In this document: piece after piece, positions 19,984 through 40,562 of the stretch | How the letters are laid out: each line of letters begins with the position of its first letter | Position numbering within the stretch: the first letter of the stretch is position 1 | NCBI GenBank assembly: GCA_965365355.1 | Contig: CBDUBJ010000002.1 | Coordinates: 8,178 to 72,177 of the forward strand | Source: an uncultured bacterium | GTDB lineage: Bacteria; Bacteroidota; Bacteroidia; Flavobacteriales; Flavobacteriaceae | DNA length: 64,000 nt | Direction: 5' to 3' | Made by a program: the position numbers and the translations under genes | The notes under the pieces: model-generated | The model's input: only the letters and a program-made list of their open reading frames with translations | Databases searched by the model: none | Told to the model about the DNA's origin: nothing

Positions 19984-20234
19984 TTTTGTTCTATTTTCTG
20001 CTGAATAATATCAATCGATGCTTTAACCGTCAGCATTTTTTCCATCGATTCATTGTCGATCGTAATGTCGAATTTTTCCTCAACATCCAGTACGACATCA
20101 ACGAGGTTTGCCGAATTGATCTTCAGGTCTTTGATGAAATCGGTATCCTCGCCGATTGTGTCGAGCGCAGGCAGATTTTTGGAATATGGCTTTACAATTT
20201 CCTTGAGCTGTACAATAACGTCGTGGCGATCCAT
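19980..20234 (-). CDS. Acyl carrier protein
   Basis: Acidic 84-aa protein with DLKINSANLVD (Ser attachment site) and EEKFDITI. Confidence 0.9.
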   Translation of the reverse strand: MDRHDVIVQLKEIVKPYSKNLPALDTIGEDTDFIKDLKINSANLVDVVLDVEEKFDITIDNESMEKMLTVKASIDIIQQKIEQK

Positions 20235-21929: not shown

Positions 21930-22705
21930 CAGCCGAGACTTTCGCCGCCATCGGCAATTATTGTTGTGCCGGTAATCCAGCGCGCTTCATCTTTGCATAG
22001 CAGATATGCGACATTTGCGATGTCTTCAGGTGTCGTAAGCCTGTTGTTTGGATTGCGCTTAACTCCTATTGCCAGTATCTTATCGCTGTTGGGAATACGA
22101 CGCATTGATTTTGTGTCGGTAACCCCTGCACAAATACAATTGCTTTTAACTCCGAATGGCGCCATTTCCAGTGCAATGCTTCTTGATATTGCTTCGAGAG
22201 ATGCCTTTGCTGCTGAGACGGCTGCATAATTTATCATCGATTTTCGACTTCCTTCCGAAGTGAAAGCTATAATTCGGGTATCAGTAGATAATATATTAGC
22301 TTTTAGTAATTTATCAGTCCAATCGTAAAGGGAAATTGCCATTGAATCGACGGTAATTCTGAAGTCCTCTGACGAAAGATTCTGGTTTCCTGTCATTGGC
22401 TTCAAGCTGCCTTTCGCAATGCTGTGAATCATGCAGGAGATGTTACCATTGCCAATTTCGGATTGAATTTTTCGAATGATTTCGTCCACATCTCGTACCG
22501 CATCTTTATTAAATGTAAGCAGCCTGATTCCCGCTTGGCTGATCGAATGAAAACTCTTTTCGACTTCCTTCATATTTTCCCGTGTATCGCGGTGCACGAT
22601 GATCAGGTTCATTCGATGTGCTGCGAGCTTAACTGCCGTCGCCAAACCCAGGCCGCTGCTGCCGCCTAAAATCAAACCCCATTTATTTTCAAATTCCTTT
22701 ACCAT
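21929..22705 (-). CDS. Enoyl-ACP reductase (FabI/FabL-type SDR)
   Basis: GGSSGLG; the Y-x6-K motif YAAVSAAK typical of enoyl reductases. Confidence 0.8.
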   Translation of the reverse strand: MVKEFENKWGLILGGSSGLGLATAVKLAAHRMNLIIVHRDTRENMKEVEKSFHSISQAGIRLLTFNKDAVRDVDEIIRKIQSEIGNGNISCMIHSIAKGSLKPMTGNQNLSSEDFRITVDSMAISLYDWTDKLLKANILSTDTRIIAFTSEGSRKSMINYAAVSAAKASLEAISRSIALEMAPFGVKSNCICAGVTDTKSMRRIPNSDKILAIGVKRNPNNRLTTPEDIANVAYLLCKDEARWITGTTIIADGGESLG

Positions 22706-23751
22706 TTTAGCAGAACACGTTGTGCGGAAAATCCAGGTCCAAAACTCAACATCAATCCTGTTTCAGATTTTCTAGGTTTGGTTTTTAAAATTTCTTCAAG
22801 GACATAAAAAACAGTTGCACTTGACATATTTCCGAATAGACGCAAGATCTCTTTGGTGGCTTTGATATTTCTGCCGTATTCGTGAAAAATCCCTTCGACA
22901 GTCTGGATGATTTTTTTTCCGCCTGGATGAAAGATCAGATGATCTATTTGATCCATCGAAAGGCCGTTCTTAGAAAGAAATGGCGAGATGATATTATCGA
23001 AGTGCGAAGCGATCGTATCGGGAACTTCAATGTCTAAAACCATCTTTAAGCCGTTATTCGTAAGTTTAAATCCCATCATGTGTTCGGCGTCGAAAAAATG
23101 ATACATTCCGCTATCTATGATTTCCGGACCTTCCGCAGTTTCATCGGACGTCAATAAAACACACGCCGCACCATCGCCAAAGATAGCAGCACTGACCACG
23201 TTTGCCATCGAATGATCCTCAAGTTGAAATGTTGCCGTAGGCGATTCAAATGCAATTACAGCCGCACGTTTTCCGGGATTTGCTTTGAGAAATTCGTTTG
23301 CATAAATGATTCCTGAAATTCCAGCTGCGCATCCCATTTCGGTAACCGGAAGCCGGACAATATCCTGCCTGAGTTTTACGAGATTTATCAGATATGCATC
23401 AAGCGACGGAATCATGATTCCTGTGCAGCTGACAGTTATTATAAAATCAAGTGTTGAAGGTTCCCAGTTTGCGGTTTGCAGCGATTTTCGCAGCACCTTC
23501 TCGCCCATTTCAATGGCTTCGCGAGTATAAATATCATTTTTTTCCTCAAATGAAGTCGCCGTGAAAACTTCCGATGGTTCCATGATGGAATAGCGTGTAT
23601 CGACAGCAGCATTTTCGAAGATCTTTTTGACCTTTCTTACAAACCTCTGATCTTCGCCATCAAGCCACGAATCGACATAATCGAGGACTTCGGATGTATG
23701 TCGGGAATATTTCGGAACCTCGCTGCAGGCTGTGACAATTCGTACACTCAT
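22699..23751 (-). CDS. Type III polyketide synthase (chalcone-synthase-like)
   Basis: Cys-His-Asn triad: MGCAAG, FHPGG, FGNMSS; also FGDGAA and SFGPG. Confidence 0.95.
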   Translation of the reverse strand: MSVRIVTACSEVPKYSRHTSEVLDYVDSWLDGEDQRFVRKVKKIFENAAVDTRYSIMEPSEVFTATSFEEKNDIYTREAIEMGEKVLRKSLQTANWEPSTLDFIITVSCTGIMIPSLDAYLINLVKLRQDIVRLPVTEMGCAAGISGIIYANEFLKANPGKRAAVIAFESPTATFQLEDHSMANVVSAAIFGDGAACVLLTSDETAEGPEIIDSGMYHFFDAEHMMGFKLTNNGLKMVLDIEVPDTIASHFDNIISPFLSKNGLSMDQIDHLIFHPGGKKIIQTVEGIFHEYGRNIKATKEILRLFGNMSSATVFYVLEEILKTKPRKSETGLMLSFGPGFSAQRVLLKW

Positions 23752-24455
23752 TTGTTAAAGATAATCCATTGATATCGGAACGCCCAACGCCATTTTATCA
23801 AATATTTCGAGATTCCCGCTTTTTGGCAATATTCTAACAAGTCCTGTTTTTTAAAGCCACGCAGAATTGAAACAAGTCCGTCCTCGCGCGACATTTGGTT
23901 CAATGAAAAAATTGCGCAGATGAGTTTGAATAATTTATAGGCAACTTTGCTTCGCTGCAAGTCGTTGATCACAATTCCGACCAATGCCATTTTTTTAAAT
24001 TGCTGCAGCAGCGCCAATATCTGCTCGTCTGAAAAATGGTGAAGTGTAAGCGTGCATAAGATAATGTCGCATTTCTGCGATTCAAATTCCGAAGAAAATA
24101 TGTCCAGAGTTCGAAATGAAATCCTGCTTTGGTCTGATAATTCCTTGGCGTTCTGTATTGTCGCCGGATTGGCATCGATGCCGGTCAATTTAAAATTCAA
24201 ATTATTCCGGAGCGCAAAGTCATCGAGTTCCCGAAGCATATCGCCATTCCCGCATCCGATGTCGATAATCGAAAATTCACGATCAGGTTCATTTGCAATC
24301 AATTTTTTGACTCCGTCGATCGTGATCCGGTTTCCACCCAGAATTCGATTAATTATAGCTATTTTCTGCAGTGCATCAACGAGCATTTCACCGCTTAGGG
24401 TAAAATCATCCATCATTTCGGCTTCGGTCGACCTGAATGTCGTATCGATTTTCAT
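23748..24455 (-). CDS. SAM-dependent methyltransferase
   Basis: IIDIGCGNGD motif I; LTLHHF; INDLQR. Confidence 0.9.
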   Translation of the reverse strand: MKIDTTFRSTEAEMMDDFTLSGEMLVDALQKIAIINRILGGNRITIDGVKKLIANEPDREFSIIDIGCGNGDMLRELDDFALRNNLNFKLTGIDANPATIQNAKELSDQSRISFRTLDIFSSEFESQKCDIILCTLTLHHFSDEQILALLQQFKKMALVGIVINDLQRSKVAYKLFKLICAIFSLNQMSREDGLVSILRGFKKQDLLEYCQKAGISKYLIKWRWAFRYQWIIFNK

Positions 24456-25570
24456 ATCATAATGGGTTTGCCGTGAGTCGACCTGATAATTGAAGGCAAA
24501 ACGAATGGAAAATGAGACAGTCCGCGCATCAGGTAACGGCTTATATCGGGTTTTAACATCATCGCCGAAAGTACTTTTCCGGCCTGGATCCTGTTTTTAA
24601 AATTGGTATTCCACGCATATTGATAGTTAACTTCCATTTCATCGCGGGAAATCTTTCCTGATAAATACGCAGATATGATCTCACTCGCAAATTTGGCACT
24701 GTGGATCGCCATCGCCATTCCGTTTCCACACAGCGGATGGATGAGGCCGGCACTGTCGCCTGTCATGACGATGTGATCATCGATTGCCGGTTTATGATCA
24801 AAACTAATCTGACTGATGGTCAGCGGTTTTTCAAACAGTCCAACGGCATGCGAAAACAACTTATCGAGATGCGGATTTAAATGCAGAACGTTTTTCTGAA
24901 AGTCGTCGACATTACCATATGCCCGAAAGGACGTATAACTTGTCAGATAACAGACATTTGTAATTTCGTTTTCAACTTGTGATACACCGCAATAGCCGCC
25001 CCGAAAATTATGAAGCGCCACCGAATCATTTGGAAAATCTGTCTGATAATGTGCTTTTACTGCCAGCCAGGGTGATTTCTGGGAAATGAATTTTCGCTTT
25101 AATTTCTGGTCAAGCAACGATCTTTTCCCGAATGCTCCGATTGTGATATTGGAATTATATTTCCTGCCGTCGGCGGTACTGACTATAAAGGCATCTTCTG
25201 AAAATTGTATGTCAGTAACAGTTTCGAAAATAAATTCTGCGCCGCATGAAAATGCTTTTTGATAAAGAAGATTGTCGAGCGCGAACCTGCTGATGCCGAT
25301 GCCGCCCAGTGGAAGTTTGGCCTTTAGAAGTCTTCCTGATGCTGTAGAAATCTGGAATTTCGAAATCTTTGGCAGGCTTAGCTCGCTAAAATCAATTCCG
25401 AGGTATTTTAAGTATGGAATGATCTCGTTGGAAATGTATTCGCCACAAACTTTGTGTCGTGGATATTGATGCTTTTCGATGACGGCCACGCGATGCCCGA
25501 TTTTGCACAGATGAATCGCTGCTGTCAGTCCCGCAACCCCGCCGCCAATGATGATAACTTCTTTATCCAT
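24452..25570 (-). CDS. FAD-dependent oxidoreductase (GGR/aromatic hydroxylase-like)
   Basis: IIGGGVAG dinucleotide fold; HKVCGEYIS; GDSAGLIHPLCGNGM. Confidence 0.85.
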   Translation of the reverse strand: MDKEVIIIGGGVAGLTAAIHLCKIGHRVAVIEKHQYPRHKVCGEYISNEIIPYLKYLGIDFSELSLPKISKFQISTASGRLLKAKLPLGGIGISRFALDNLLYQKAFSCGAEFIFETVTDIQFSEDAFIVSTADGRKYNSNITIGAFGKRSLLDQKLKRKFISQKSPWLAVKAHYQTDFPNDSVALHNFRGGYCGVSQVENEITNVCYLTSYTSFRAYGNVDDFQKNVLHLNPHLDKLFSHAVGLFEKPLTISQISFDHKPAIDDHIVMTGDSAGLIHPLCGNGMAMAIHSAKFASEIISAYLSGKISRDEMEVNYQYAWNTNFKNRIQAGKVLSAMMLKPDISRYLMRGLSHFPFVLPSIIRSTHGKPIMI

Positions 25571-25626: not shown

Positions 25627-27534
25627 TTACACTTTGCCGTCGCGGATTTCGTCGACGATTTCAGGATTAAGCAATGTAGTTGTATCACCAAAATTTGAGA
25701 AATCTCCTTCAGCGATCTTGCGCAGGATCCGGCGCATTATTTTTCCCGATCTTGTTTTTGGCAATGCAGATACGAATTGCATTTTATCAAGTTTTGCGAT
25801 AGGTCCGATTTGTTCGCTGATATGCGAATTGATTTTCGCTCTTATCTGATCCAGATCATGCTCTTGCGCGGCATCCTTTAATATAACAAATCCGTATAGC
25901 GCATTTCCCTTGATATCGTGCGGATAACCGACAACTGCAGCCTCGGCGACATCTTCATGCTCGTCGATCGCATCCTCAATTGGCGCAGTGCCGAGATTGT
26001 GACCCGATACGATCACGACATCATCAACGCGGCCTGTAATTCTGTAAAAACCGTTTTTGTCGCGCAGTGCGCCATCGCCCGTAAAATACTTTCCGGGATA
26101 CGCTGTAAAGTAGGTTTCGATAAAACGCTTGTGATCACCCCAAATGGTGCGCGCGATCGACGGCCATGGATAATTGATGCACAGATTTCCCGCAGATGCT
26201 ACATCGCTGATCTCATTTTTGTTTTCATCTATCAAAGATGGCTGAATTCCGGGTAATGGAAGCGTAGCGTATGTTGGTTTTGTATCAGTGACAAAAGGTA
26301 TTGCAGAAATCATGACTCCGCCGGTTTCGGTCTGCCACCATGTATCGACGATCGGGCATTTTTTCTTTCCGACATTTTCATCATACCAGTGCCATGCTTC
26401 ATCGTTTATGGGTTCGCCGACTGAACCGATTATCTTCAATGAAGACAGATCGTGTTTTAAAACCCATGAAACATCTTCTTTTGCAAGCGAACGAATCGCA
26501 GTCGGCGCCGTATAAAATTGTGTCACCTGATGTTTCTGTATGACTTCCCAAAATCTACCTGAATCGGGAAAAGTTGGAATGCCTTCAAAAATGACGGTCG
26601 TTGCGCCATTTAAAAGCGGGCCATAAACAATATACGAATGTCCAGTGATCCAGCCGATATCGGCCGTACACCAAAACACATCATCTTTTTGATAATTGAA
26701 AATATTCTGAAACGTGTAAGCGGTATAAACCATGTAACCCGCGATTGTATGCATCATGCCTTTCGGCTTTCCCGTCGATCCTGAAGTGTAAAGTATAAAT
26801 AGCGGATCTTCGGCGTTCATTGTCGCAGCATCATTTTTCTCAGAAGCCTTTTCCAGCAGCGGTTCAAGAAAATAATCCCGCCCGTCGACCATCGTAACTG
26901 AATCGTTTGTACGTTGTGCAACCAACACATTTTCGACGGAAGGACAATCATTTAATGCGACGTCGATTATCGGTTTAAGCAATACTTTTTTGGCTCCCCG
27001 ATAAACGCCATCGGCAGTAATTACCATTTTTGATTGGCAATCGTTGATGCGGGTAGCGACGGCATTGGACGAAAAACCTGCGAAAACAACCGAATGCACG
27101 GCGCCGATGCGCGCGCAGGCAAGAACGGAAATTGCGAGTTCCGGGATCATCGGAAGGTATATGCAAACGCGATCTCCTTTTTGAATGCCTTTTTGTAAAA
27201 GGACATTTGCCATTTTACAGACATCACGATGGAGTTCCCGATAAGAAATGTGCCGAGATGATTCGGCAGGATCATTTGGCTCAAAAATTATTGCAGTTGC
27301 GTCCCCTGAGCCTTCAAGATGCCGGTCGAGGCAATTTTCGGTAATGTTTAGCTGCGCGCCATCAAACCATTTAAAAGTCGCGGCATGCATGTCAAACTCA
27401 GAAACACGATCCCATCTTCTTTTCCAAACAAAATTTTCAGATGCGATCCCAGCCCAGAATTCATCGGGACTATCAACAGAAAACCTGTATTGTTCTTCGT
27501 AAGTTTTAAGATCTTTGATATGATAAACTGCCAT
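25627..27534 (-). CDS. acs: Acetyl-CoA synthetase
   Basis: YTSGSTGKPKG, DTWWQTETGG and PKTRSGKIMRR (acetylation Lys). The ATG at 27534 is preferred over 27561. Confidence 0.95.
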   Translation of the reverse strand: MAVYHIKDLKTYEEQYRFSVDSPDEFWAGIASENFVWKRRWDRVSEFDMHAATFKWFDGAQLNITENCLDRHLEGSGDATAIIFEPNDPAESSRHISYRELHRDVCKMANVLLQKGIQKGDRVCIYLPMIPELAISVLACARIGAVHSVVFAGFSSNAVATRINDCQSKMVITADGVYRGAKKVLLKPIIDVALNDCPSVENVLVAQRTNDSVTMVDGRDYFLEPLLEKASEKNDAATMNAEDPLFILYTSGSTGKPKGMMHTIAGYMVYTAYTFQNIFNYQKDDVFWCTADIGWITGHSYIVYGPLLNGATTVIFEGIPTFPDSGRFWEVIQKHQVTQFYTAPTAIRSLAKEDVSWVLKHDLSSLKIIGSVGEPINDEAWHWYDENVGKKKCPIVDTWWQTETGGVMISAIPFVTDTKPTYATLPLPGIQPSLIDENKNEISDVASAGNLCINYPWPSIARTIWGDHKRFIETYFTAYPGKYFTGDGALRDKNGFYRITGRVDDVVIVSGHNLGTAPIEDAIDEHEDVAEAAVVGYPHDIKGNALYGFVILKDAAQEHDLDQIRAKINSHISEQIGPIAKLDKMQFVSALPKTRSGKIMRRILRKIAEGDFSNFGDTTTLLNPEIVDEIRDGKV

Positions 27535-27535
27535 G

Positions 27536-27763
27536 CTATAGTTTATTTTTGTCGTATTCACCTTTTAATGCGTAGAATCCGAACGCGAAAAGTCCGGCAA
27601 CGATGAGCGGCGTCAGCACGAAGAGAATAATGATGCCGAATACAAGATCTTCCTGGTTGCCGGTTTGAAGTTTTGGCAATCCGAAGATGAAGATGCAAAA
27701 GTATGCGGCTGCGGCTGCAAGTGAAATCCACAGGAAACCTAAAAGTCTTTTGATTGTATCCAT
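27536..27763 (-). CDS. Small two-TM membrane protein (DUF6814-like)
   Basis: 75 aa with two hydrophobic helices ending GFYALKGEYD; tightly packed between the MFS gene and acs. Confidence 0.7.
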   Translation of the reverse strand: MDTIKRLLGFLWISLAAAAAYFCIFIFGLPKLQTGNQEDLVFGIIILFVLTPLIVAGLFAFGFYALKGEYDKNKL

Positions 27764-29217: not shown

Positions 29218-29382
29218 GTGTAGGGATTTGGATAAAAATAGAAAAATATCTTAAAGCTCCAAATATCCTAAGATACAATGCACCAAAGCTCGCCAAACGA
29301 CAAAAAAATGAATCTGACTAATGATTGTTGGGGACTTTGGTGCTTCTCAAAAAATCACTTAATTTGTGAAAACCATCCAACC

Positions 29383-29985
29383 ATGAATTTTAACCCCGAT
29401 GATATCGGGCATTCCGAATCTTACAAATTGCTTACCGGCTCGGTAATTCCACGACCGATCGGATGGATTTCCTCGATAGATTCTAAGGGTAATCTGAATC
29501 TTGCACCATTTTCATATTTTAATATTGTCGGTGATGATCCGCCACATGTCATGTTTTCAACTGTACGGACCGGCGGCGGAAACAAGGATACACTGAACAA
29601 TGTGATGGAAACGAAAGAATTTGTCGTGAATATGGTGACCGAAGATGTAGTCGAAAAGATGAATACTACTTCGCAACAGGTTCCACCCGAAATCAATGAA
29701 TTCGAATTGGCAGGATTGACTACAGCTCCGTCCCTATTGGTGAAGCCGCCAAGAGTCCTGGAAAGTAAAATAAATTTTGAATGCAGGCTTGTACATCATT
29801 ACGAACTGGAAGATCATACGAAAGGCGGCGCGGTTATGATGGTGGGACGAATTGTCATGTTTCATATTGACGACGAGATCATATCTGATAATTTCCGCAT
29901 CAATATGAACAAATACCGACCGGTTGCAAGGCTTGCAGGTTCCAATTACACCACGTTAGGCGAAATTTTTTCAATCAAAAGATAA
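29383..29985 (+). CDS. Flavin reductase-like FMN-binding protein
   Basis: VIPRPIGWISS, NLAPFSYFN, KDTLNN and RLAG motifs; ATG at 29383 (the ORF track starts at 29278). Confidence 0.85.
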   Translation: MNFNPDDIGHSESYKLLTGSVIPRPIGWISSIDSKGNLNLAPFSYFNIVGDDPPHVMFSTVRTGGGNKDTLNNVMETKEFVVNMVTEDVVEKMNTTSQQVPPEINEFELAGLTTAPSLLVKPPRVLESKINFECRLVHHYELEDHTKGGAVMMVGRIVMFHIDDEIISDNFRINMNKYRPVARLAGSNYTTLGEIFSIKR

Positions 29986-30042: not shown

Positions 30043-32310
30043 ATGAAAATTACCGTAATTGGCGGCGGCCCCGGAGGCTTATACTTTGCAATTTTACTTA
30101 AAAAAGCCGTTCCGTCATGTTCGATCGACTTATATGAACGCAACAAATCCGACGATGCATTCGGTTTTGGTGTCGTCTTTTCGGATGAAACACTATCGGA
30201 ATTTTTAACGCGCGATCCGCAGTCGTACGAACTGATACGCAGGAGTTTTGCCTACTGGGACGATCTTGATGTCGTTCGAAATGGTGAGCGTGTGCGAATT
30301 ACAGGAAATGGATTTTGCGGCTGTTCACGAAAAACGTTGCTTCAGTTGCTGCAGCAGCGCTGTCGTGAGGAAGGCGTCAACCTTCATTATGAAACTAATG
30401 TGGATGACCTTTCGCAATTCGCGTCCAGTGATGTAATCGTTGCATGCGACGGCATCAACAGTTTTATCAGGGAACAGAAGGCCGCTGATTTTGAAACCAA
30501 TGTTATTTTGCAGCGCAATAAATTCGTGTGGCTCGGATCGACAAAACCATTGGATGCTTTTGCGTACTTCTTTCGTGAAACCGAGTTTGGGACAATTGTC
30601 GCGCACACTTATCAATACGAAGACGGCCGAAGCACTTGGATTTTCGAATGTACTCCCGAAACGTGGGAAAAGGCAGGTTTCGATACTTATAACGAAGAGG
30701 ATACCATTGCAAAGTTGTCGAATTATTTTAAGGATGAATTAGATGGCCATCCACTGATATCAAACAAATCCCACTGGCGTCAGTTTCCTACGATCACAAA
30801 TAGAAATTGGTCTGCGGGAAACGTAGTCCTGCTTGGAGATGCAAAAGCAACAGCCCACTACTCCATCGGTTCAGGGACAAAACTAGCGATGGAATGCGCC
30901 ATTTCACTGGCCGATTCGATTGCGGCAAACCAGCAAAGTATTCCTGAAGCGTTTAAAATGTATGAAAAGTTGCGAAGAAACCGCGTGGAAATGATCCAGC
31001 ATGCTGCGAAAGTTTCATTGGATTGGTTTGAACATATGGACAGGCATATCAAGCATCCATTCATGCAATTTGCTTTCGGAGTTATGACACGTGCCAAAAA
31101 GGTTACTTATGAAAACCTTGCACTTCGCGACCGATCGTTTACCGAAAAAGTTGTCGCTGAGTTTACTGCCATAAATAATTTTGAGAGGGCCATTTCTCCG
31201 GCATTTACGCCGTTTAAGTTTGGTGACCTCGAATTGATAAACCGTATTGCGATGGCGCCGATGATCCACAATATGGCGTGCGAAGGTGTCGTTGGCGATT
31301 GGCATCTGATGCATTACGGAAGCCGCGCCGTCGATGGTTTGGGATTGATTATTACAGAGCCGGTTTCGGTACATGAAAATGGCAAAATCAATGCAGGATG
31401 CGCCCTGATTTCTAATGACGAACAAGTATTGGCGTGGCGACGCATCACGGATTTTGTCAATCGGAACTCAAAATGTAAGATGGCAATCCAGCTCAATCAC
31501 GCAGGCCGAAAGACTCATAATCAATCAGGAAAAATTTCTGCGTCGTCGATAGCATTTGATAAAGATTTGGGTGTTCCGAAGGAAATGACAATTCAGGATA
31601 TGGATGAAATTGTCGGATCATTCATTGCTTCTGCCAAAAATGCTGAAAAAGCCGGTTTCGACATGATCAGCATCGAAATGAGCAGCGGATATTTGTTAGC
31701 CTCATTTTTATCACCGTTATCAAACCAACGCAGCGATGAATTCGGCGGAAGCGTTGAGCATAGAATTAAATTCCCGATGCGGGTTTTTAGTGAAGTCCGC
31801 AAAGCATTTGACGCAAATAAACCCATTTCAATTTCCATTTCCGCATCCGACTGGCATGAAGACGGAATTTCTCGATCAGATGTAATTTTTATCGCTAACG
31901 CATTTAAGAATGCAGGAGTCGATCTTATAAATGTTGTATCGGGTGGAACCATTTCAGATGAAAAAGCCGAATCCGGCCGCATGTATCAGACGCCATTTGC
32001 CGACCTTATCAGAAATACTGTCGATATTCCCGTAATAACCTCAGGGCAGATTCAGGATATCGATCAAATAAACACGATATTACTCAACGGTCGTGCGGAC
32101 ATAGTTGCATTAGGCCGTCCACTGATGCTCGATCCAGGATTTGTACGGAATGCGCAAGCTTATGAAACTTATCAGCCTGATGATATTCCGCGTGCATATC
32201 AAAGCGGAATTTCGCATCTTTATCCTTTAAGATCAGCTGAGAAACGTGAAAAGGATGCGATGAAAAAAGCATTGAAACCTGAAAGCCATTCAAGCCATAA
32301 AAACAAATGA
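30043..32310 (+). CDS. Anthraniloyl-/salicylyl-CoA 5-hydroxylase fused to an OYE-type oxidoreductase domain (AbmA/SdgC family)
   Basis: FAD monooxygenase motifs GGGPGG, ACDG and LLGDA..AHYSIGSGTKLAME; C-terminal OYE barrel (NRIAMAPM, QLNHAGRK, FLSPLSNQRSDEFGGS). Confidence 0.9.
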   Translation: MKITVIGGGPGGLYFAILLKKAVPSCSIDLYERNKSDDAFGFGVVFSDETLSEFLTRDPQSYELIRRSFAYWDDLDVVRNGERVRITGNGFCGCSRKTLLQLLQQRCREEGVNLHYETNVDDLSQFASSDVIVACDGINSFIREQKAADFETNVILQRNKFVWLGSTKPLDAFAYFFRETEFGTIVAHTYQYEDGRSTWIFECTPETWEKAGFDTYNEEDTIAKLSNYFKDELDGHPLISNKSHWRQFPTITNRNWSAGNVVLLGDAKATAHYSIGSGTKLAMECAISLADSIAANQQSIPEAFKMYEKLRRNRVEMIQHAAKVSLDWFEHMDRHIKHPFMQFAFGVMTRAKKVTYENLALRDRSFTEKVVAEFTAINNFERAISPAFTPFKFGDLELINRIAMAPMIHNMACEGVVGDWHLMHYGSRAVDGLGLIITEPVSVHENGKINAGCALISNDEQVLAWRRITDFVNRNSKCKMAIQLNHAGRKTHNQSGKISASSIAFDKDLGVPKEMTIQDMDEIVGSFIASAKNAEKAGFDMISIEMSSGYLLASFLSPLSNQRSDEFGGSVEHRIKFPMRVFSEVRKAFDANKPISISISASDWHEDGISRSDVIFIANAFKNAGVDLINVVSGGTISDEKAESGRMYQTPFADLIRNTVDIPVITSGQIQDIDQINTILLNGRADIVALGRPLMLDPGFVRNAQAYETYQPDDIPRAYQSGISHLYPLRSAEKREKDAMKKALKPESHSSHKNK

Positions 32311-33911
32311 AAATTTACGAAGACAATTTTGCGCATGAAAATCTGCCGTCGAAAGAACTGCAGCCCTATTATCTATTTCTGGAGCAATCGCAGTTTAACT
32401 TTGGAACTGACCTGAATTGCGCTTATCGCCTGCTCGATTATCATATTGAAAACGGTAATGGTGATGCCGTCGCAATACGAACATTTGAAATCACGTGGAC
32501 ATATCGCGAACTGTATGAAAAAAGCAATCAGATCGCGCATGTTCTTGCCGATGATCTGTCGCTAAAACCCGGGAATCGCGTTTTGATACGATCTGCCAAC
32601 AATCCGATGATGGTGGCGTGCTGGTTCGCTGTCATCAAAGCGGGCGGAATAGTCGTGGCGACGATGCCGTTGCTGCGCGAGAAGGAATTATCGACGATGA
32701 TCGAATGTGCCGAAATCTCGATGGCGCTTTGCGATTACAGGCTTGAAGAGGAATTGGCTGCGGTTCATTCGCCGTTTTTAAAACAATATATCACGTTTGA
32801 CGGCATCGGTTCAGGCATTTCAAAGCTTGAGGTTCTGATGCATAACAAATCGACTGAATTTAAAAATTATGATTCTGACGCCGAACAGGTTTGTCTGATC
32901 GGGTTTACATCAGGAACAACAGGTAAACCTAAAATGACCGCGCATTTCCATCGCGATGTTGTTGCGATCTGCGAAGCGTTTCCGCAATATGCGTTGCAGC
33001 CGACGCCGTTGGATATTTTTACGGGAAGTCCACCGCTTGGTTTTACTTTCGGGCTTGGCGGACTTGTCTTGTTTCCGTTGTATTATGGCGCATCGACATT
33101 TCTGATAGAAAAACCATCTCCTGAACTGTTGTTAAAAGCGATAGAACAGTTTAAAATTACCATTTGCTTTACGGCCCCAACTGCCTGGCGAGTCATCACG
33201 GCAAAGGTTGAGAATTTCGATATTTCGTCGCTTCGCAAGTGCGTATCGGCTGGCGAAACGCTTCCCGCTAAAGTGTGGCAGGATTGGTACGATGCAACCG
33301 GTTTAAAGATTATTGATGGAATAGGGTCGACGGAAATGCTTCACATCTTCATTTCGAATAATGAGGATTTTATGAAAAAGGGCTCTACCGGAAAGGCCGT
33401 AACTGGTTATGAAGCCAAGGTCGTCGGAAATGACGGCATCGAAGTTCCCATAAATACGCCCGGCAGGCTTGCAGTTCGCGGGATTACGGGATGTAAATAT
33501 CTTGCTCGTGAAGAAAAGCAGCGCGAATATGTTGAAAATGGCTGGAACATTACCGGAGACATTTATAAGGTGGATGAAGATGGTTACTTCTGTTTTGTGG
33601 CACGTGGCGACGACATGATCATATCATCAGGATATAATATCGGCGCTATCGAGGTTGAAAGTGTGCTCCTGCTCCATCCGGAAGTTTTAGAGTGCGCGGT
33701 TGTCGGATTGCCCGATCATGAACGAGGAATGCTGGTATGCGCAAATATTGTTTTAAAAGATCACTCGAAGGCTTGTGATGAACTTGCGAAAGAAATGCAG
33801 GATTGGTTTAAAGAGAATGCTGCGCCTTATAAATATCCAAGGATGATCAAGTTTTTGGAGAGTTTGCCTAAGACGGAAACGGGGAAAATACAGCGGTTTA
33901 GATTAAAATAA
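32307..33911 (+). CDS. Aromatic acid-CoA ligase (2-aminobenzoate/benzoate-CoA ligase family)
   Basis: FTSGTTGKPK, GIGSTE, NITGD, LPKTETGKIQR; 4-bp overlap with the upstream gene. Confidence 0.9.
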   Translation: MKIYEDNFAHENLPSKELQPYYLFLEQSQFNFGTDLNCAYRLLDYHIENGNGDAVAIRTFEITWTYRELYEKSNQIAHVLADDLSLKPGNRVLIRSANNPMMVACWFAVIKAGGIVVATMPLLREKELSTMIECAEISMALCDYRLEEELAAVHSPFLKQYITFDGIGSGISKLEVLMHNKSTEFKNYDSDAEQVCLIGFTSGTTGKPKMTAHFHRDVVAICEAFPQYALQPTPLDIFTGSPPLGFTFGLGGLVLFPLYYGASTFLIEKPSPELLLKAIEQFKITICFTAPTAWRVITAKVENFDISSLRKCVSAGETLPAKVWQDWYDATGLKIIDGIGSTEMLHIFISNNEDFMKKGSTGKAVTGYEAKVVGNDGIEVPINTPGRLAVRGITGCKYLAREEKQREYVENGWNITGDIYKVDEDGYFCFVARGDDMIISSGYNIGAIEVESVLLLHPEVLECAVVGLPDHERGMLVCANIVLKDHSKACDELAKEMQDWFKENAAPYKYPRMIKFLESLPKTETGKIQRFRLK

Positions 33912-34152: not shown

Positions 34153-34584
34153 ATGTTTTCAAAACAAGAAAAAATACGTTTTAAACACGTCGATTACGCG
34201 GGAATTGTCTTTTATCCAAGATTCCTCGAAATGCTCAACGATCTTGTAGAAGATTGGTTTGAAGAAGCGCTCGACAGGCCATTTTCTAAGATTCACGAAA
34301 CGAACGGCATTCCAACAGTTGACTTAAAAGTCAAGTTCAAAAAAGCCGCACGGATCGGCGATATGATCACTAAAACACTTTGGGTTTCCAATCTTGGCGG
34401 CGCATCTGTAACATGTGGATTCAGATTTTCTTCCGGAAATGAAGTCGTACTTGAAGGTGAAGTCACGCTTGTAAATGTTGCGTTGAATAAGGGAAATGGC
34501 AAATTATCCGCGGAACCCTTTGATAACATAACCCGATCTAAAATATTGAAATACAGCGTTGATGATAAAAATCTTCAATCATAA
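34153..34584 (+). CDS. Acyl-CoA thioesterase (4-hydroxybenzoyl-CoA thioesterase type)
   Basis: IRFKHVDYAGIVFYPRF motif with the catalytic-type Asp; hot-dog fold size. Confidence 0.9.
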   Translation: MFSKQEKIRFKHVDYAGIVFYPRFLEMLNDLVEDWFEEALDRPFSKIHETNGIPTVDLKVKFKKAARIGDMITKTLWVSNLGGASVTCGFRFSSGNEVVLEGEVTLVNVALNKGNGKLSAEPFDNITRSKILKYSVDDKNLQS

Positions 34585-34587
34585 TAA

Positions 34588-35283
34588 ATGGCAAATTATT
34601 TAATCGTCGGCGGGTCGTCAGGAATAGGAAAAGCCCTTACCAAGAAGCTTGCGGATGCAGGCAACAAGGTTTTCGCGTCATATTACAGTAATGATCAAAA
34701 TCAGGATGCGGATAACATTACCTATTTCAGGATGAATGTGCTTGATGAGGTTCCGCTTGATTTTTTGCCCGAAACAATTGACGGACTTGCCTATTGCCCG
34801 GGTTCAATAAATTTGCGCCCGTTCGAACGCATAAAACCGACGGATTTTATTGACGATTTCAATTTGCAGGTCGTCGGCGCGATAAAAATGATCCAGGTAG
34901 CATCAGCACGAATGAAACGAAGCGAAGCGGCATCAATCGTCCTTTTTTCGACGGTCGCCGTACAAACCGGATTGCCGTTTCACACGCAGGTATCAACTTC
35001 GAAAGGCGCACTTGAAGGATTGACGAAAGCGCTCGCTGCGGAATATGCACCAAAGATCCGTGTGAATTGCATCGCTCCTTCATTGACCGACACGCCTTTG
35101 GCTTCAAATCTTCTTAACAGCGATCAGAAAAAAGAAGCCAACGCCCTGCGACATCCGATGAAAAGGATTGGCAGCGTTGACGACATTGCTTCGGCCGCAG
35201 AATTTTTATTATCATCGAAATCAAGCTGGATAACGGGACAGATTTTACACGTCGATGGCGGTATATCGTCGCTTCGGGTTTGA
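34588..35283 (+). CDS. Atypical SDR oxidoreductase
   Basis: GGSSGIG, NCIAPSLTDT and ITGQILHVDGG; the YxxxK position reads VSTSK. Confidence 0.85.
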   Translation: MANYLIVGGSSGIGKALTKKLADAGNKVFASYYSNDQNQDADNITYFRMNVLDEVPLDFLPETIDGLAYCPGSINLRPFERIKPTDFIDDFNLQVVGAIKMIQVASARMKRSEAASIVLFSTVAVQTGLPFHTQVSTSKGALEGLTKALAAEYAPKIRVNCIAPSLTDTPLASNLLNSDQKKEANALRHPMKRIGSVDDIASAAEFLLSSKSSWITGQILHVDGGISSLRV

Positions 35284-35332: not shown

Positions 35333-36322
35333 ATGGAATTTTCCCATTTTAAAGCTGCAGCCGTACAAACTTCACCGATTTTTCTAAATGTCGAAAAGAC
35401 GATCGATAAAGCAATTTCGATCATAAAAGAAGCGGCGGGTAATGGCGCACAGCTCATTGCATTTCCGGAAGTGTTTATTTCCGGATATCCGTATTGGAAC
35501 TGGATCATGACGCCGGTTCAGGGCAGCAAATGGTACGAGCAATTGTACCGCAATTCGGTTTCGGCGGACAGTCCTGAAATTGAAAGGATTTGCGAGGCCG
35601 CGAAAAAAAATGACATCCATGTGGTCATCGGAATGAACGAACGCGGTTCGAGTTATGGCGAAATTTACAACACGAACCTGATCATCGATAACATAGGAAA
35701 GATCGTCGGAAAGCACAGGAAATTGGTTCCGACATGGGCAGAGAAACTAACATGGACATCAGGCGACGGATCGTCTTTAAAAGTATATAACACGGAAGTT
35801 GGTCCGATCGGAACGCTGGCATGCGGCGAAAACACCAACACTTTGGCGCGCTTTACATTGTTGTCGCAGGGTGAGCTGATCCACATCGCAAATTACATTT
35901 CGCTTCCGGTCGCGCCTCCTGACTATAATATGGCCGAAGCAATAAAGATCCGCGCTGCAGCACATTCATTCGAAGGAAAACTGTTCACAATCGTTTCGTG
36001 TTCGACCATATCGAAAGAGATCATGGACATCATGAAAGAAGATGTTCCAAATGCAGAAGAATTGCTCACGCGGACGAATTCCGCTTTTTCAGGCTTTATC
36101 GGTCCGAATGGCGCTGTAATCGGCGATCCCTTAATCGACGATGAAGGAATAGTGTATGCCGATATAGATCTTTCCAAGTGCATCCAGCCAAAACAAATGC
36201 ACGATATATTGGGGCATTATAACCGGTTTGACATTTTTGATCTTAGAGTCAATACAGCTCCAACAAAGAAGATCACATTCGTTAATAGCAATGAGGAATT
36301 TTTCAAAAGGGAAATCCGTTAA
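35333..36322 (+). CDS. Nitrilase-superfamily carbon-nitrogen hydrolase
   Basis: Glu-Lys-Cys triad: FPE, HRKLVPT, LACGENTN; DILGHYNRFDIF tail. Confidence 0.9.
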   Translation: MEFSHFKAAAVQTSPIFLNVEKTIDKAISIIKEAAGNGAQLIAFPEVFISGYPYWNWIMTPVQGSKWYEQLYRNSVSADSPEIERICEAAKKNDIHVVIGMNERGSSYGEIYNTNLIIDNIGKIVGKHRKLVPTWAEKLTWTSGDGSSLKVYNTEVGPIGTLACGENTNTLARFTLLSQGELIHIANYISLPVAPPDYNMAEAIKIRAAAHSFEGKLFTIVSCSTISKEIMDIMKEDVPNAEELLTRTNSAFSGFIGPNGAVIGDPLIDDEGIVYADIDLSKCIQPKQMHDILGHYNRFDIFDLRVNTAPTKKITFVNSNEEFFKREIR

Positions 36323-36351: not shown

Positions 36352-37452
36352 ATGGACGGAAAATACAGCGATGACGTCATTGGCCGGGCCCGAGTTCAGG
36401 ATACGCCCGAACTGGAGGCTTATTACAACGAGCTTTCAGAACTTGGCGCAGGTGCGCTCTGGACTGTTGCAAATGACATTGAGCCGTGGGAACCGCGTGC
36501 TTCATCAGTTCCGATGCTTTGGCGGTATGACGATTTGCGGGATTTGGTTTTGAGATCTTCGGAACTCGTAACACCGGAAAAAGCAGGACGACGTGTGGTT
36601 TATCTGGTAAATGATAAGCGTCGCGACGTAAGTGCTGCAGTTGGCTGGCTTTACACCGGAATTCAGGTCACGCGGCCCGGCGAAAGCACTTCTGCTCACA
36701 GGCATAAGGCATCGGCATTGCGATTTATCATGGAAGGCGAAGGAGGCTATACGGTTGTCGATGGGAATAAGATCACGTTTGAAGTCAACGATTTTGTTAT
36801 TACCCCTAATTCAACATGGCATGAGCACGGCGTTGTCGAAGGCGGTAAAACATGCATTTGGCAGGACGGTCTCGACATTCCGCTGGTTAATGCGCTTGAA
36901 GCCAATGATTATGCGGTTTTTGATGGAAAACAGCCTTTGGAAAAGCCGGTAAACTATTCACCTATGACATTTTCCGGTGCAGGCTTGCGTCCGACATATG
37001 AAAATTGGGACAAGCCATATTCACCGCTGTTTAAATATGAATGGAAGAATGTATATCCTGCACTTCAGGCTGCGGCGGCCGCGGGCGAAGGCTCGCCGTA
37101 CGATGGAATCATCATGCATTATACAAATCCGAAAGATGGCGGTCATGTGATGCAAACACTCGGCGCATCGATGCAGATGCTTTTGCCCGGACAACATACA
37201 AAAGCGCATAGACATACCGGATCATTTGTTTTTCAATGTGCCAAAGGCCGTGGTTATACGGTGGTCAACGGAAAGCGTTTCGATTGGAAAGAACGCGATA
37301 TTTTCTGCATTCCGTCATGGATGTGGCATGAACATGTGAATTTGAGCGATAGTGAAGATGCATGTTTGTTTTCGTTCCACGATTTGCCGGTGATTGAAAA
37401 ACTGGGTCTGTATCAGGAAAAGGCATATGACCAAAACAATGGCTATCAATAG
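36352..37452 (+). CDS. Gentisate 1,2-dioxygenase-like bicupin
   Basis: AHRHKASALRF and WHEH in the N-terminal cupin; AHRHTGS and WHEH in the C-terminal cupin; WQDGLDIPL. Confidence 0.9.
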   Translation: MDGKYSDDVIGRARVQDTPELEAYYNELSELGAGALWTVANDIEPWEPRASSVPMLWRYDDLRDLVLRSSELVTPEKAGRRVVYLVNDKRRDVSAAVGWLYTGIQVTRPGESTSAHRHKASALRFIMEGEGGYTVVDGNKITFEVNDFVITPNSTWHEHGVVEGGKTCIWQDGLDIPLVNALEANDYAVFDGKQPLEKPVNYSPMTFSGAGLRPTYENWDKPYSPLFKYEWKNVYPALQAAAAAGEGSPYDGIIMHYTNPKDGGHVMQTLGASMQMLLPGQHTKAHRHTGSFVFQCAKGRGYTVVNGKRFDWKERDIFCIPSWMWHEHVNLSDSEDACLFSFHDLPVIEKLGLYQEKAYDQNNGYQ

Positions 37453-37602: not shown

Positions 37603-38520
37603 ATGAAACTCGTTACATACAGTTACAACGATTCGATCCAGAGGATTGGCGTCATGCAAAACGACTCGATCATAGATATAAGCCAACTTGGAGCAATTGT
37701 CGGGAAAGATTTTCCGGTTACGATGCTCGACCTGATTGATTTCGGATTTCCGATGGTAGAGAAAATTTCGAAGGCAATTTCGGACCATGCATCAGACCTT
37801 GCCGGAATTTCGCATCCGGTTGAAAAGGTTAAGCTGCTCGCCCCTATTCCGCGGCCGCGAAAAAATATCATTGGAATCGGCCTTAATTATACGGAACATG
37901 TTGCCGAGAGCGCCAGAACGCTGGATACATCTAACGAGCTCCCGCAGCAACCCGTTATTTTCTCGAAACCTCCTACGGCTGTAATCGGTACGAATGAAGA
38001 TATCCTGCACAACCGCAAACTGACAAAGCAGCTTGATTGGGAAGTTGAACTGGCGGTGATCATTGGCAAAAAAGGAAAGTATGTCAAAAAAGAAGATGCG
38101 CTTGATTATGTGTTTGGATATACGGTCATCAATGACATCAGTGCACGCGACTGCCGCCGTGCAGGGCAATGGATCGTTTCAAAAGGCCAGGATACTTTTG
38201 CGCCTATGGGCCCGTGCATTGTAACAAAAGATGAAATTCCCGATCCGCATAATCTCAATCTGTGGCTTACACTGAACGGAATCGAAAAACAGCGCTCAAA
38301 CACGAAGTTCATGTTGTTCAACATCAATGACCTGATTGAAGATCTAAGCACTGTTTTTACAATTGAAGCCGGCGATATCATTGCAACGGGAACGCCTTCG
38401 GGAGTTGGCGCAGGCCGAAATCCGCAGGAATGGATGTGGGACGGCGACCTCGTGGAGGCTACGGTTGAAGGAATTGGGACGATTGTGAATACGGTGAAGG
38501 AATTGAGAGTTGAGAGTTGA
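37603..38520 (+). CDS. Fumarylacetoacetate hydrolase family protein (maleyl-/fumarylpyruvate hydrolase-like)
   Basis: GIGLNYTEH, IFSKPP, LDWEVEL, NDISARD, KGQDTF, GDIIATGTPSGVG. Confidence 0.9.
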   Translation: MKLVTYSYNDSIQRIGVMQNDSIIDISQLGAIVGKDFPVTMLDLIDFGFPMVEKISKAISDHASDLAGISHPVEKVKLLAPIPRPRKNIIGIGLNYTEHVAESARTLDTSNELPQQPVIFSKPPTAVIGTNEDILHNRKLTKQLDWEVELAVIIGKKGKYVKKEDALDYVFGYTVINDISARDCRRAGQWIVSKGQDTFAPMGPCIVTKDEIPDPHNLNLWLTLNGIEKQRSNTKFMLFNINDLIEDLSTVFTIEAGDIIATGTPSGVGAGRNPQEWMWDGDLVEATVEGIGTIVNTVKELRVES

Positions 38521-38573: not shown

Positions 38574-39326
38574 TTGAAAAATACATACAGAATTGGCCAG
38601 ATTGTACCATCATCCAACGTGACGATGGAAACCGAGATCCCTGCGATATTCCGCGCGCGCGAATCGATTTTGCCCGAAAGATTTACTTTCCATTCGAGCC
38701 GGATGCGCATGAAGAAAGTCACAAAAGAAGAGCTCGAAGCAATGGATGCTATGAGTTTAAAATGTGCCCAGGAACTTTCAGACGCTCATGTCGACGTCAT
38801 GGGATACGCCTGTCTTGTCGCGATCATGAGCATGGGCCGCGGATACCATTGTGTTTCCGAAACAAACCTGCACCGCGAAACTACCGATAATGGATTTCCA
38901 ACCCTAATTGTTACCAGTGCCGGAGCTTTGGTTACAGGTTTAAAAGCCCTTGGAGCCAAAAAGGTCGCGTTGATCACGCCGTATATGAGGCCTTTGACAG
39001 ATCTGGTCGTTGATTATATCGAACATCAGGGATTTGAAGTCAAAGGTTCGATTGCGCTCGAGATTGCCGACAACCTGGAGGTTGCCGCCCAAGATCCGAT
39101 GAATTTATTGGAGATCTATAAGCGGCTTGATCTTACAGATGTCGATGTGCTGGTTGCCTCGTGCTGCGTCCAGATGCCATCTTTGCCTGCTATAGATCTG
39201 ATTGAGAAAGAGCTTGGCATTCCGGTAACCTCGGCAGCGGTTTGCACTACTTACGAAATGATGAAGAAATTGGGAATCGTAACAAAAGCTCCGATTGGAG
39301 GCAGTTTGCTCAATGGAAAATACTGA
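38574..39326 (+). CDS. maiA: Maleate cis-trans isomerase (Asp/Glu racemase superfamily)
   Basis: IGQIVPSSNVTMETE, catalytic Cys in YACLVAIM and SCCVQMPS; TTG start. Confidence 0.85.
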   Translation: MKNTYRIGQIVPSSNVTMETEIPAIFRARESILPERFTFHSSRMRMKKVTKEELEAMDAMSLKCAQELSDAHVDVMGYACLVAIMSMGRGYHCVSETNLHRETTDNGFPTLIVTSAGALVTGLKALGAKKVALITPYMRPLTDLVVDYIEHQGFEVKGSIALEIADNLEVAAQDPMNLLEIYKRLDLTDVDVLVASCCVQMPSLPAIDLIEKELGIPVTSAAVCTTYEMMKKLGIVTKAPIGGSLLNGKY

Positions 39327-39592: not shown

Positions 39593-39686
39593 GGATGCTG
39601 GCGGCTCGCAACGCACATTGGATTTTTTTTTAATTTTACGTTGATTGCAGGATTACTCTACCTGCCCGATGCATAAAATAATTTCA

Positions 39687-40562
39687 ATGTCATTGCAACT
39701 TACCCAGATCGAACGCGTTAAAACAATCACTAAGGAAGAGTTTTACAATAATTACGTGAAAAAGCAAAAGCCTGTCGTTATCGAAAGACTGACGCAGGAT
39801 TGGCCCGCTTTCCATAAATGGAATTTGGATTATATCAGTCAGATTGCCGGAAGTAAGACTGTGCCGCTTTACGATGACCGACCGGTTTCTCACAAAGACG
39901 GTTTTAACGAGGCTCATGCTAAGATGAAAATGTCTGATTACATCGAGCTTCTTAAACGCGAACCAACCAATTACAGGATATTTCTATATAACCTGATGAA
40001 GGAAGTGCCGTCGTTAAAGAGTGATTTTATATGGCCGGATATCGGACTCAGCTTGGTTAAGCAATTGCCAATGTTATTTTTCGGCGGTTCGAATTCCAAA
40101 GTATTCATGCATTTCGATATTGATTATTCTAATATTTTGCATTTCCATTTTCACGGCGAAAAGCAGTGCATTCTATTCCCGCCCGATCAAACAAAATATT
40201 TATATAAGGTTCCTCATGCATTGATCTCTAGAGAGGATATCGATTTTGATAATCCTGATTTTGAGAAATGGCCGGCACTTAAACATGCAAGCGGATGGAA
40301 AACAAATCTCAAGCATGGCGAAATGCTTTATATGCCGGAAGGATATTGGCACTATATGAAATATCTTACGCCGGGATTTTCGATGAGTCTCCGTGCTTTG
40401 CCGAAAACGATGTCAAACATTTCAAAAGCGGTGTACAATGTTTTCGTTATGAGGCATTTCGACAACTGGATGCGGAAAAGAAAAGGCCAGAAATGGATCG
40501 ATTATAAAAACAGGCGTGCGATCGAAAATACGCATAAGGCATTAGGACTTCCAACCAACTAA
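39687..40562 (+). CDS. JmjC/cupin-8 2OG-Fe(II) oxygenase
   Basis: KPVVIE, LFFGG, H-x-D in MHFDID, G(E)MLYMPEGYWH. Confidence 0.85.
   Translation: MSLQLTQIERVKTITKEEFYNNYVKKQKPVVIERLTQDWPAFHKWNLDYISQIAGSKTVPLYDDRPVSHKDGFNEAHAKMKMSDYIELLKREPTNYRIFLYNLMKEVPSLKSDFIWPDIGLSLVKQLPMLFFGGSNSKVFMHFDIDYSNILHFHFHGEKQCILFPPDQTKYLYKVPHALISREDIDFDNPDFEKWPALKHASGWKTNLKHGEMLYMPEGYWHYMKYLTPGFSMSLRALPKTMSNISKAVYNVFVMRHFDNWMRKRKGQKWIDYKNRRAIENTHKALGLPTN

Follow-up and report, generated by a model that had tools for sequence, protein, structure and literature searches.

Known aryl-CoA hydroxylases and the locus studied

The systems closest to the enzyme analysed here act on aromatic acids bound to coenzyme A (CoA). 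In Streptomyces sp. WA46, a ligase, the hydroxylase SdgC, a thioesterase (or spontaneous hydrolysis) and a gentisate-type dioxygenase reportedly act in sequence, a route that Ishiyama is said to have described in 2004; the gentisyl-CoA thioesterases BH1999 and PhgB belong to the same CoA-dependent gentisate route. Azoarcus evansii's 2-aminobenzoyl-CoA monooxygenase/reductase (AbmA or ACMR; anthraniloyl-CoA monooxygenase, EC 1.14.13.40) joins a flavin adenine dinucleotide (FAD) monooxygenase to a reductase domain of the old yellow enzyme (OYE) family. PMC3534580 (citing Langkau 1990) and PMC4539516 state that 5-hydroxyanthraniloyl-CoA is formed when NADH is limiting and a cyclohexenone-CoA otherwise. 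Here we describe a gene of this family and architecture from an uncultured bacterium of the Flavobacteriaceae, located in a stretch of 64,000 nucleotides (GCA_965365355.1, contig CBDUBJ010000002.1, positions 8,178 to 72,177, forward strand) that is referred to below as the window.

At a probability of about 0.7, the product of this gene is an AbmA/SdgC-family aryl-CoA 5-hydroxylase whose OYE domain is a catalytically dead relic, probably free of flavin. Missing from the OYE half are the two His residues that anchor the substrate, the Arg that anchors flavin mononucleotide (FMN), the equivalent of Tyr28 of the OYE YqjM and some 20 further clade-invariant residues. Judged by its residues and its operon, the protein would work like an SdgC-type hydroxylase, and it corresponds neither to an active OYE nor to an AbmA-type monooxygenase/reductase.

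The best NCBIfam match of the hydroxylase is NF006101 ('bifunctional salicylyl-CoA 5-hydroxylase/oxidoreductase'), at 864.6 bits and thus below the curated cutoff of 1078. The FAD motifs GGGPGG (aa 7-12), DGINS (aa 136-140) and GDAKATAH (aa 265-272) are present, in agreement with the initial annotation of the window, and the N-terminal half matches VioD structures. The C-terminal half is recognised by PF00724 (Oxidored_FMN) with 217 bits over aa 388-705 and aligns with YqjM at 39% identity over 320 aa (E 5e-65). In the AF2 model of the hydroxylase, the per-residue confidence (pLDDT) is 90-98 over most of the OYE barrel and the predicted TM score (pTM) is 0.88; a Foldseek comparison of the OYE half of the model with YqjM (1z41) gave a TM score of 0.96 and an rmsd of 1.3 A. 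No structure of a fused monooxygenase-OYE enzyme was found in the PDB (best TM score normalised to the query <=0.44), and no second OYE gene was found in the window.

Active-site and FMN-site residues of the OYE half

Alignments to GkOYE (3gr7) and YqjM placed E545 and S548 opposite both His of the motif EIHAAHGYL, and the replacement of the His pair that the initial annotation had reported at nt 31675-31686 was thereby confirmed. Its second observation, that the YqjM-type motif APMCQY reads APMIHN, was confirmed as well (aa 405-410). Q409H and Y410N are real departures from the family; I408, at the Cys26 site, was rejected as evidence of decay because the Cys of the motif varies across the family (A, D or C in Abm-type enzymes, G or E in the Flavobacterium clade). 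The extent of the loss is also larger than had been noted, as S598 in place of the FMN-anchoring Arg and the change of Ser to Val at aa 632 (YqjM S249) had been missed.

The states of seven sites, numbered as in YqjM, were compared between the window, its closest relative (the sister protein P0002) and three groups of homologues (Table 1). By fold and profile the window domain belongs to the OYE family, and its structure superposes on the 'thermophilic-like' OYEs of the YqjM class (1z41, 3gr7), with Q102, the proton-donor Tyr (Y169) and the GR phosphate motif retained. It differs from them by H164 to E, H167 to S, R215 to S, Y28 to N and S249 to V and by its fusion to a monooxygenase, so that neither the His/His or His/Asn pair nor the Gln and Arg pair of the FMN site is complete. 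The claim that the reductase half is without residues an OYE needs for ene-reduction stands, the His pair and the FMN Arg being lost. For comparison, the mutated positions named in PDB entry 8x0j, an engineered OYE of the YqjM class, are Q102, Y169, R215 and R308.

Table 1. Residues at OYE sites in three groups of homologues, the window protein and the sister protein
YqjM site	Abm-type (n=135)	Flavobacterium clade (n=78)	Streptomyces clade (n=119)	Window	Sister
Y28	Y 99%	Y 97%	Y 51%	N	N
Q102	Q 100%	Q 100%	Q 100%	Q	N
H164	H 99%	Q 100%	Q 100%	E	Q
H167	H 100%	H 100%	H 100%	S	D
Y169	Y 100%	F 94%	H 89%	Y	S
R215	R 99%	R 100%	R 100%	S	S
S249	S 99%	S 100%	S 100%	V	T

The consensus of the best 120 homologues (64-74% identity) is of a Flavobacterium type, with GFDMIELQAHHGFL, S/APM[GE]QY, IQLGHSGRK and SVRISASDW, and only the window protein and P0002 (EIQMNDGSL) deviate from it. 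Complete loss of the His pair is common to these two lineages only. All 78 other relatives in the Flavobacterium clade carry the same operon as the window and have Gln-x-x-His, usually Phe for Tyr, and an FMN site with its residues kept.

Uneven divergence of the two halves

The two halves of the hydroxylase were compared at near-invariant positions defined from the 78 other members of the Flavobacterium clade. The window protein is changed at 25 of the 128 such positions in the OYE half but at only 3 of the 190 in the FAD half, which agrees with the FAD domain being intact. The sister protein, which is 74% identical to the window protein and is encoded on a separate scaffold of the same metagenome assembly (locus L001), shows 17/128 and 2/190 changes, respectively. 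Control members of the clade have on average 1.4 changed positions in the OYE half (maximum 7) and 2.2 in the FAD half. Likewise, the identity of the window protein to the rest of the clade is close to that of typical pairs in the FAD half (75.5% vs 76.9%) and is reduced in the OYE half (57.1% vs 71.4%), and between the window and sister proteins identity is 86% for the FAD half but 64% for the OYE half. The ratio of nonsynonymous divergence (dN) between the OYE and FAD halves is 2.7 for the window-sister pair and 1.3-2.1 in other pairs; as synonymous divergence (dS) is saturated between the window and its relatives, only such dN ratios are usable, and positive and relaxed selection are inseparable. 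Amino-acid changes thus accumulate roughly two to three times faster in the OYE half than in the FAD half. The OYE half nevertheless keeps its TIM-barrel fold, and purifying selection acts on that fold.

Seven derived changes (R394G, Y410N, A530S, L544I, A546M, T560S and R598S) are identical in the window and sister proteins, so the decay began in their common ancestor; that two organisms have it in common also argues against an artefact. At other conserved sites the replacements differ between window and sister, namely H548 to S or D, S444 to H or N and S632 to V or T, which is the pattern expected of relaxed constraint. The identity of the OYE half minus that of the FAD half, expressed in percentage points, runs from about 0 to +3.5 in Abm-type enzymes through -5.5 in the Flavobacterium clade and -7 to -11 in the Streptomyces clade to -18 to -22 in the window lineage, a gradient that fits a progressive abandonment of the OYE half.

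Site state and gene neighbourhood across the family

The initial annotation had proposed a test of whether loss of the HxxH motif goes together with ring-cleavage neighbours. Four genome scans gave 310 loci, of which 197 non-redundant ones with at least 6 kb on both sides were used for the association. Flanking open reading frames (ORFs) were clustered and their representatives scanned against Pfam, which yielded the families RidA/L-PSP, enoyl-CoA hydratase (ECH), AMP-ligase, acyl-CoA dehydrogenase (ACAD), short-chain dehydrogenase/reductase (SDR) and PaaX; the operon proteins and seeds then served as BLAST queries. A locus was counted as having the ring-cleavage set when two or more of the genes for the dioxygenase, the nitrilase and the Amdase were present, and as beta-oxidation-type with at least two of ECH, ACAD and RidA.

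The ring-cleavage set was found beside none of the 133 enzymes with the canonical His-His-Tyr site, 116 of which have at least two of ECH, ACAD and RidA. It was found beside 62 of the 64 non-canonical enzymes, the exceptions being L167 and L195. As the loci are phylogenetically related, the Fisher p-value of this contrast must not be taken as if every locus counted independently. The expected correlation was obtained, but not in the form proposed, because the second His is kept in all other ring-cleavage-linked enzymes. Their states, given in the order first His, second His, Tyr, are QHF or QHY in the Flavobacterium clade, QHH or QHQ in Streptomyces and Yinghuangia, HHF in L166 and NHY in Enemella (L212). 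In these sequences, the signature that recurs in ring-cleavage-linked enzymes is a change of the first His to Gln or Asn and/or of the Tyr to Phe, His or Gln, rather than loss of the His pair. That these other enzymes strictly conserve the Gln and Arg of the FMN site as well as the second His suggests that their OYE halves still bind FMN and keep some role. The initial annotation had also held that loss of the His pair reroutes the pathway. This causal part does not apply here: the operon and Q-x-x-H, together with a conserved FMN site, are already present across the clade, so the loss in the window came later, as a consequence of reduced constraint, and did not bring the rerouting about.

The closest canonical relatives of the Flavobacterium clade form the P0121 clade (Alphaproteobacteria and Lysobacterales), in which HxxHGY and the Arg occur in 120/120 sequences. 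The contig of P0121 itself is only 2.8 kb long, and the loci of its relatives were used for context: in L311, L312 and L313, ECH, ACAD and RidA lie directly upstream of the fused enzyme. These three loci also contain an extra stand-alone Oxidored_FMN gene of about 490 aa beside the fused enzyme (L311 12549-14030, L312 12346-13815, L313 12592-14040) and POR/TPP (indolepyruvate-oxidoreductase-like) genes; a kynurenine-formamidase-type cyclase is present in L311 and L313, and Rieske oxygenase genes in L312 and L313. A rough neighbour-joining (NJ) tree placed the Flavobacterium clade next to P0121 and L176, and the actinobacterial ring-cleavage enzymes nested among canonical actinobacterial ones, which suggests at least three to four independent changes rather than one. 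The loci newly fetched in the betaproteobacterial scan (best 80 loci) were all canonical and Abm-type.

Among 67 full-length representatives of 50% clusters, the canonical Q-H-H-Y-R site was recognised in only 19, the alignment being uncertain in the most degenerate ones. The other 48 (P0126-P0270) have a strongly degenerate C-terminal domain, in some cases with unrecognisable OYE motifs; loci of this group are L163, L167, L168, L172, L195 and L215.

Comparison with Abm-type and Streptomyces loci

The window ligase is 45-54% identical to the aryl-CoA ligases that adjoin the fused enzyme in Abm-type clusters. The Abm-type proteins differ from the window protein in their canonical Q-H-H-Y-R site, where the window has E, S and S at the positions of both His and the Arg, and in their ECH, ACAD and RidA neighbours, where the window has a ring-cleavage operon; the window protein also falls below the NF006101 cutoff, the comparison being made through Abm-type loci.

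The window operon has the content of an SdgC-type operon, with an aryl-CoA ligase, a gentisate-type 1,2-dioxygenase and a thioesterase, and follows the same pathway logic as the CoA-dependent gentisate route. Counterparts of the window's nitrilase, dioxygenase, FAH and Amdase genes, 50-64% identical, lie in the Streptomyces loci L164, L173 and L185, and the window hydroxylase is 38-41% identical to actinobacterial ring-cleavage-linked hydroxylases such as that of L164. The Streptomyces clade differs in keeping the second His together with the Gln and Arg of the FMN site, three residues of which the window has only the Gln (Q483); on the NJ tree it and the Flavobacterium clade are not sister groups. 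Among the 120 Streptomyces homologues of L164, many are named salicylyl-CoA 5-hydroxylase, and all 120 carry ELQ[YF][GA]HG[HQ]L. Circumstantial evidence (Streptomyces origin, operon content and the NF006101 score of L164) places WA46 SdgC presumptively in the L164 clade. It was not found by name among the best 120 Streptomyces homologues, nor was AbmA of Azoarcus or Aromatoleum among the best 80 betaproteobacterial loci. A literature search found no description of OYE-site changes in SdgC-type enzymes, which is not proof that none has been published.

The NF006101 scores follow the same division: 1362 for the Abm-type L070, exactly the cutoff of 1078 for the ring-cleavage-linked L164, and values below the cutoff for the Flavobacterium-clade proteins (961; window 865). 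A single NF006101 name therefore probably covers at least two functions, one reducing and one apparently non-reducing.

The operon and its surroundings

The features of the locus are given in Table 2. The genes from Flavin_Reduct to Amdase are all co-directional, the hydroxylase ORF is unbroken, and the start codon of the ligase gene overlaps the hydroxylase stop codon, indicating translational coupling. No ECH, ACAD or RidA gene lies in the operon or within 10 kb, and ECH and ACAD are absent from the operon in the 80 loci of the Flavobacterium clade. The window operon is thus a ring-cleavage operon and not a beta-oxidation operon, as the initial annotation had read it. Apart from the SDR, its gene order is found again on the sister contig and in essentially all of the 80 Flavobacterium-clade loci with enough contig, and across these operons the genes for the thioesterase, the dioxygenase, the FAH and the isomerase show 65-92% identity. 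The bicupin dioxygenase scores below both of its cutoffs (295 bits vs 442 and 276 bits vs 650). A scan of the operon for promoters and terminators gave results no different from those for shuffled sequence.

Table 2. Features of the hydroxylase gene and its operon (window coordinates)
Feature	Coordinates	Strand	Basis
Flavin_Reduct (PF01613) gene, directly upstream of the hydroxylase	29278..29985	+	Pfam; homologue 55-83% identical in 79/80 loci listed
AbmA/SdgC-family two-domain flavoprotein gene, 755 aa	30043..32310	+	ORF; Pfam FAD_binding_3 + Oxidored_FMN
FAD aryl-CoA monooxygenase domain, N-terminal, aa 1-370, intact	30043..31152	+	Motifs, clade-invariant positions, identity
OYE TIM-barrel domain, C-terminal, aa 387-706; fold kept, active and FMN sites decayed	31201..32160	+	Pfam PF00724
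APMIHN, aa 405-410: H409 for clade-invariant Gln, N410 for Tyr (YqjM Y28)	31255..31272	+	Motif, site table
Q483, equivalent of FMN-binding Gln102 of YqjM; kept in window, Asn in sister	31489..31491	+	Site table
Degenerate OYE signature GFDMISIEMSSGYL, aa 538-551	31654..31695	+	Motif and OYE alignments
E545 at first His position (YqjM H164); clade consensus Gln	31675..31677	+	Alignment, site table
S548 at second His position (YqjM H167); His in 100% of all three comparison groups	31684..31686	+	Alignment, site table
Y550, equivalent of proton-donor Tyr (YqjM Y169); Phe in 94% of Flavobacterium clade, Ser in sister	31690..31692	+	Site table
S598 for FMN-anchoring Arg (YqjM R215); common to sister; Arg in 99-100% of comparison groups	31834..31836	+	Site table
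Aryl-CoA ligase, benzoate-CoA ligase family	32307..33911	+	ORF, NCBIfam
Hotdog-fold acyl-CoA thioesterase, 4HBT family	34153..34584	+	NCBIfam, Pfam
SDR, inside operon	34588..35283	+	NCBIfam, Pfam
Nitrilase-superfamily C-N hydrolase	35333..36322	+	NCBIfam, Pfam; kept in operons of Flavobacteria and Actinobacteria
Bicupin ring-cleavage dioxygenase, gentisate / 5-aminosalicylate 1,2-dioxygenase-like	36352..37452	+	NCBIfam, Pfam
Fumarylacetoacetate-hydrolase (FAH)-family hydrolase	37603..38520	+	NCBIfam, Pfam
Amdase / maleate-isomerase-like protein, Asp/Glu racemase superfamily	38574..39326	+	NCBIfam, Pfam

The sister locus has a gene for a 516-aa Por_Secre_tail protein (sorted by the type IX secretion system, T9SS) between ligase and thioesterase (L001 4993-6543), and the window has its SDR between thioesterase and nitrilase; neither belongs to the conserved operon.

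The nitrilase-type C-N hydrolase is conserved at 53-89% identity in the ring-cleavage operons of Flavobacteria and Actinobacteria, and homologues occur at L164 (12390-13442), L166 (6727-7725) and L212 (1737-2798). Its gene and the maleate-isomerase-like one are together suggestive of an amide as intermediate, for example a product of the maleamate type, and this would indicate an amino substrate (anthranilate via 5-hydroxyanthranilate) rather than salicylate. The C-N hydrolase conserved here and the RidA conserved in Abm-type clusters are a hint that the substrate of both routes is amino-substituted, as anthranilate is.

As a rule, group A FAD monooxygenases work without a separate reductase, and yet a Flavin_Reduct gene lies beside the hydroxylase. 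Its occurrence was listed for the Flavobacterium-clade loci L083-L161. Homologues lie near the actinobacterial ring-cleavage loci L166 (20293-20907) and L212 (3984-4685); the Streptomyces loci lack the gene, and among the Abm-type loci it was found in L061 only.

Downstream of the operon, a Cupin_8 (JmjC-like) gene (39645-40562, plus strand) has counterparts of 76-85% identity in the closest relatives only (L082, L084 and L085). On the other side, genes for a phosphopantetheinyl transferase, a ketosynthase, a FabA-like dehydratase, an SDR, a type III polyketide synthase (chalcone-synthase-like), a methyltransferase and an FAD monooxygenase/halogenase-like protein occupy 19489-25570 on the minus strand, and this biosynthetic-looking cluster may serve the formation of an alkylresorcinol or of a lipid pigment of the flexirubin type. 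It is followed by an acetyl-CoA-synthetase-like ligase gene at 25627-27561. A gene at 16993-18915 (plus strand) for a protein with cNMP-binding, CBS and DUF294 nucleotidyltransferase regions is unrelated to the hydroxylase.

Alternative explanations

Several observations weigh against a dead OYE domain. In the OYE half, dN is only 0.30 with dS saturated and omega is well below 1; the domain is therefore not drifting freely and may keep a non-reductase function. The domain also keeps Y550, Q483 and the GR(P) phosphate motif, and the evidence for the window protein and the Flavobacterium clade consists of sequences and models. OYE mutants with Tyr changed to Phe, or His to Gln or Asn, are not always inactive, so that for the wider clade we infer a dead domain from its residues. 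To a large extent the family-wide association contrasts one clade with another, the rough NJ tree giving about four independent events, and degenerate members with ECH or ACAD neighbours exist (L167, L168 and L172), so loss of canonical residues is not always tied to ring cleavage. The Abm-type and Streptomyces clades are presumed to represent the characterised AbmA (Azoarcus) and SdgC (WA46). The overall purifying selection and the retained Y550 and Q483, together with the full length and high predicted-fold confidence of the domain, the conserved flavin reductase gene immediately upstream and the strictly conserved FMN-site residues in the rest of the clade, which imply a role of the OYE half there, would also suit a domain that has taken on a new function and evolves fast by adaptation. 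Such a function might be catalysis of the dienone's tautomerisation or re-aromatisation, binding of NADH or of the CoA moiety, regulation or scaffolding, or partnership with Flavin_Reduct. We consider it unlikely, if by no means negligible: the window and sister proteins replaced conserved positions differently, including Q483 (kept in one, Asn in the other), which looks like relaxation, and the lower identity between them in the OYE half indicates that the two are still diverging there.

It is quite improbable that ring reduction has been outsourced, for example to the SDR of the operon or to an enzyme encoded elsewhere, with a non-aromatic CoA ester as the product. The SDR gene lies inside the window operon, which gives this idea a candidate, but it is missing from the operon of the sister and stands outside the conserved one; the lack of ECH, ACAD and RidA and the conservation of the thioesterase, dioxygenase, FAH and isomerase genes also point the other way. 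In addition, PMC3534580 and PMC4539516 imply that, unless reduction takes place inside the enzyme, the intermediate becomes aromatic again, which also supports the premise of the initial annotation that re-aromatisation follows when reduction fails. One might suspect an error of assembly or sequencing, or a gene that is being lost as a pseudogene, as the protein is on record from one metagenome contig only, and yet this is hardly credible given the uninterrupted ORF of 755 aa that is coupled to the ligase gene, the well-conserved FAD half and a second organism whose protein has the same seven derived substitutions, R598S and Y410N among them. A catalytically dead OYE domain within a hydroxylase that probably still works is the reading we retain.

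Proposed reaction course and history

If the OYE half is dead, the enzyme would only hydroxylate 2-amino- or 2-hydroxybenzoyl-CoA para to the 2-substituent, at the expense of NADH. Without hydride delivery, the dienone or quinoid intermediate would tautomerise spontaneously to the aromatic 5-hydroxy-aryl-CoA, from which the thioesterase would free the acid. The bicupin dioxygenase would then open the ring and the FAH-type enzyme carry out C-C hydrolysis; hydrolysis of the amide by the nitrilase-type amidase and cis-trans isomerisation by the maleate-isomerase-like protein would follow.

The change from hydroxylation with reduction to hydroxylation alone would have preceded the losses seen in the window, taking place in the whole Flavobacterium clade and separately in the Streptomyces clade. 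This early step would have replaced the first His by Gln and the Tyr by Phe or His while leaving the FMN site in place, and the window and sister lineages would later have lost the residual role of that site and reached the end stage of decay. More broadly, and with somewhat less than even confidence, we propose from the sequence comparisons that AbmA/SdgC members may have been recruited repeatedly, in at least three to four events (Flavobacterium clade, Streptomyces clade, L166 and L212), from dearomatisation and beta-oxidation to hydroxylation and ring cleavage, the OYE half being disabled each time at the same two or three positions and then abandoned.

Implications for the family

Taken alone, the window is a modest result, as it confirms a ring-cleavage route whose pathway logic is known and provides an end-stage example of OYE decay; the family-wide pattern is more useful. 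The NF006101 equivalog lumps the reducing Abm-type enzymes, which have the highest scores among the sequences compared with it, with apparently non-reducing Sdg-type enzymes under the name 'bifunctional ... oxidoreductase'. A residue signature that separates both types would improve pathway prediction for the catabolism of anthranilate, tryptophan and salicylate. If the proposed recurrent recruitment is true, a signature of two to three residues would predict an aromatic or an alicyclic product for thousands of proteins under one label, and the conserved operon would be an uncharacterised anthranilate route via 5-hydroxyanthranilate with an amide as the ring-cleavage product. The family also forms a natural graded series, from fully active enzymes through those with catalytic residues swapped and the FMN site kept to those with the FMN site lost. 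This series is usable for studying how a catalytic domain within a fusion protein turns into a pseudo-enzyme domain, and it could show what controls re-aromatisation versus hydride capture of a labile dienone intermediate.

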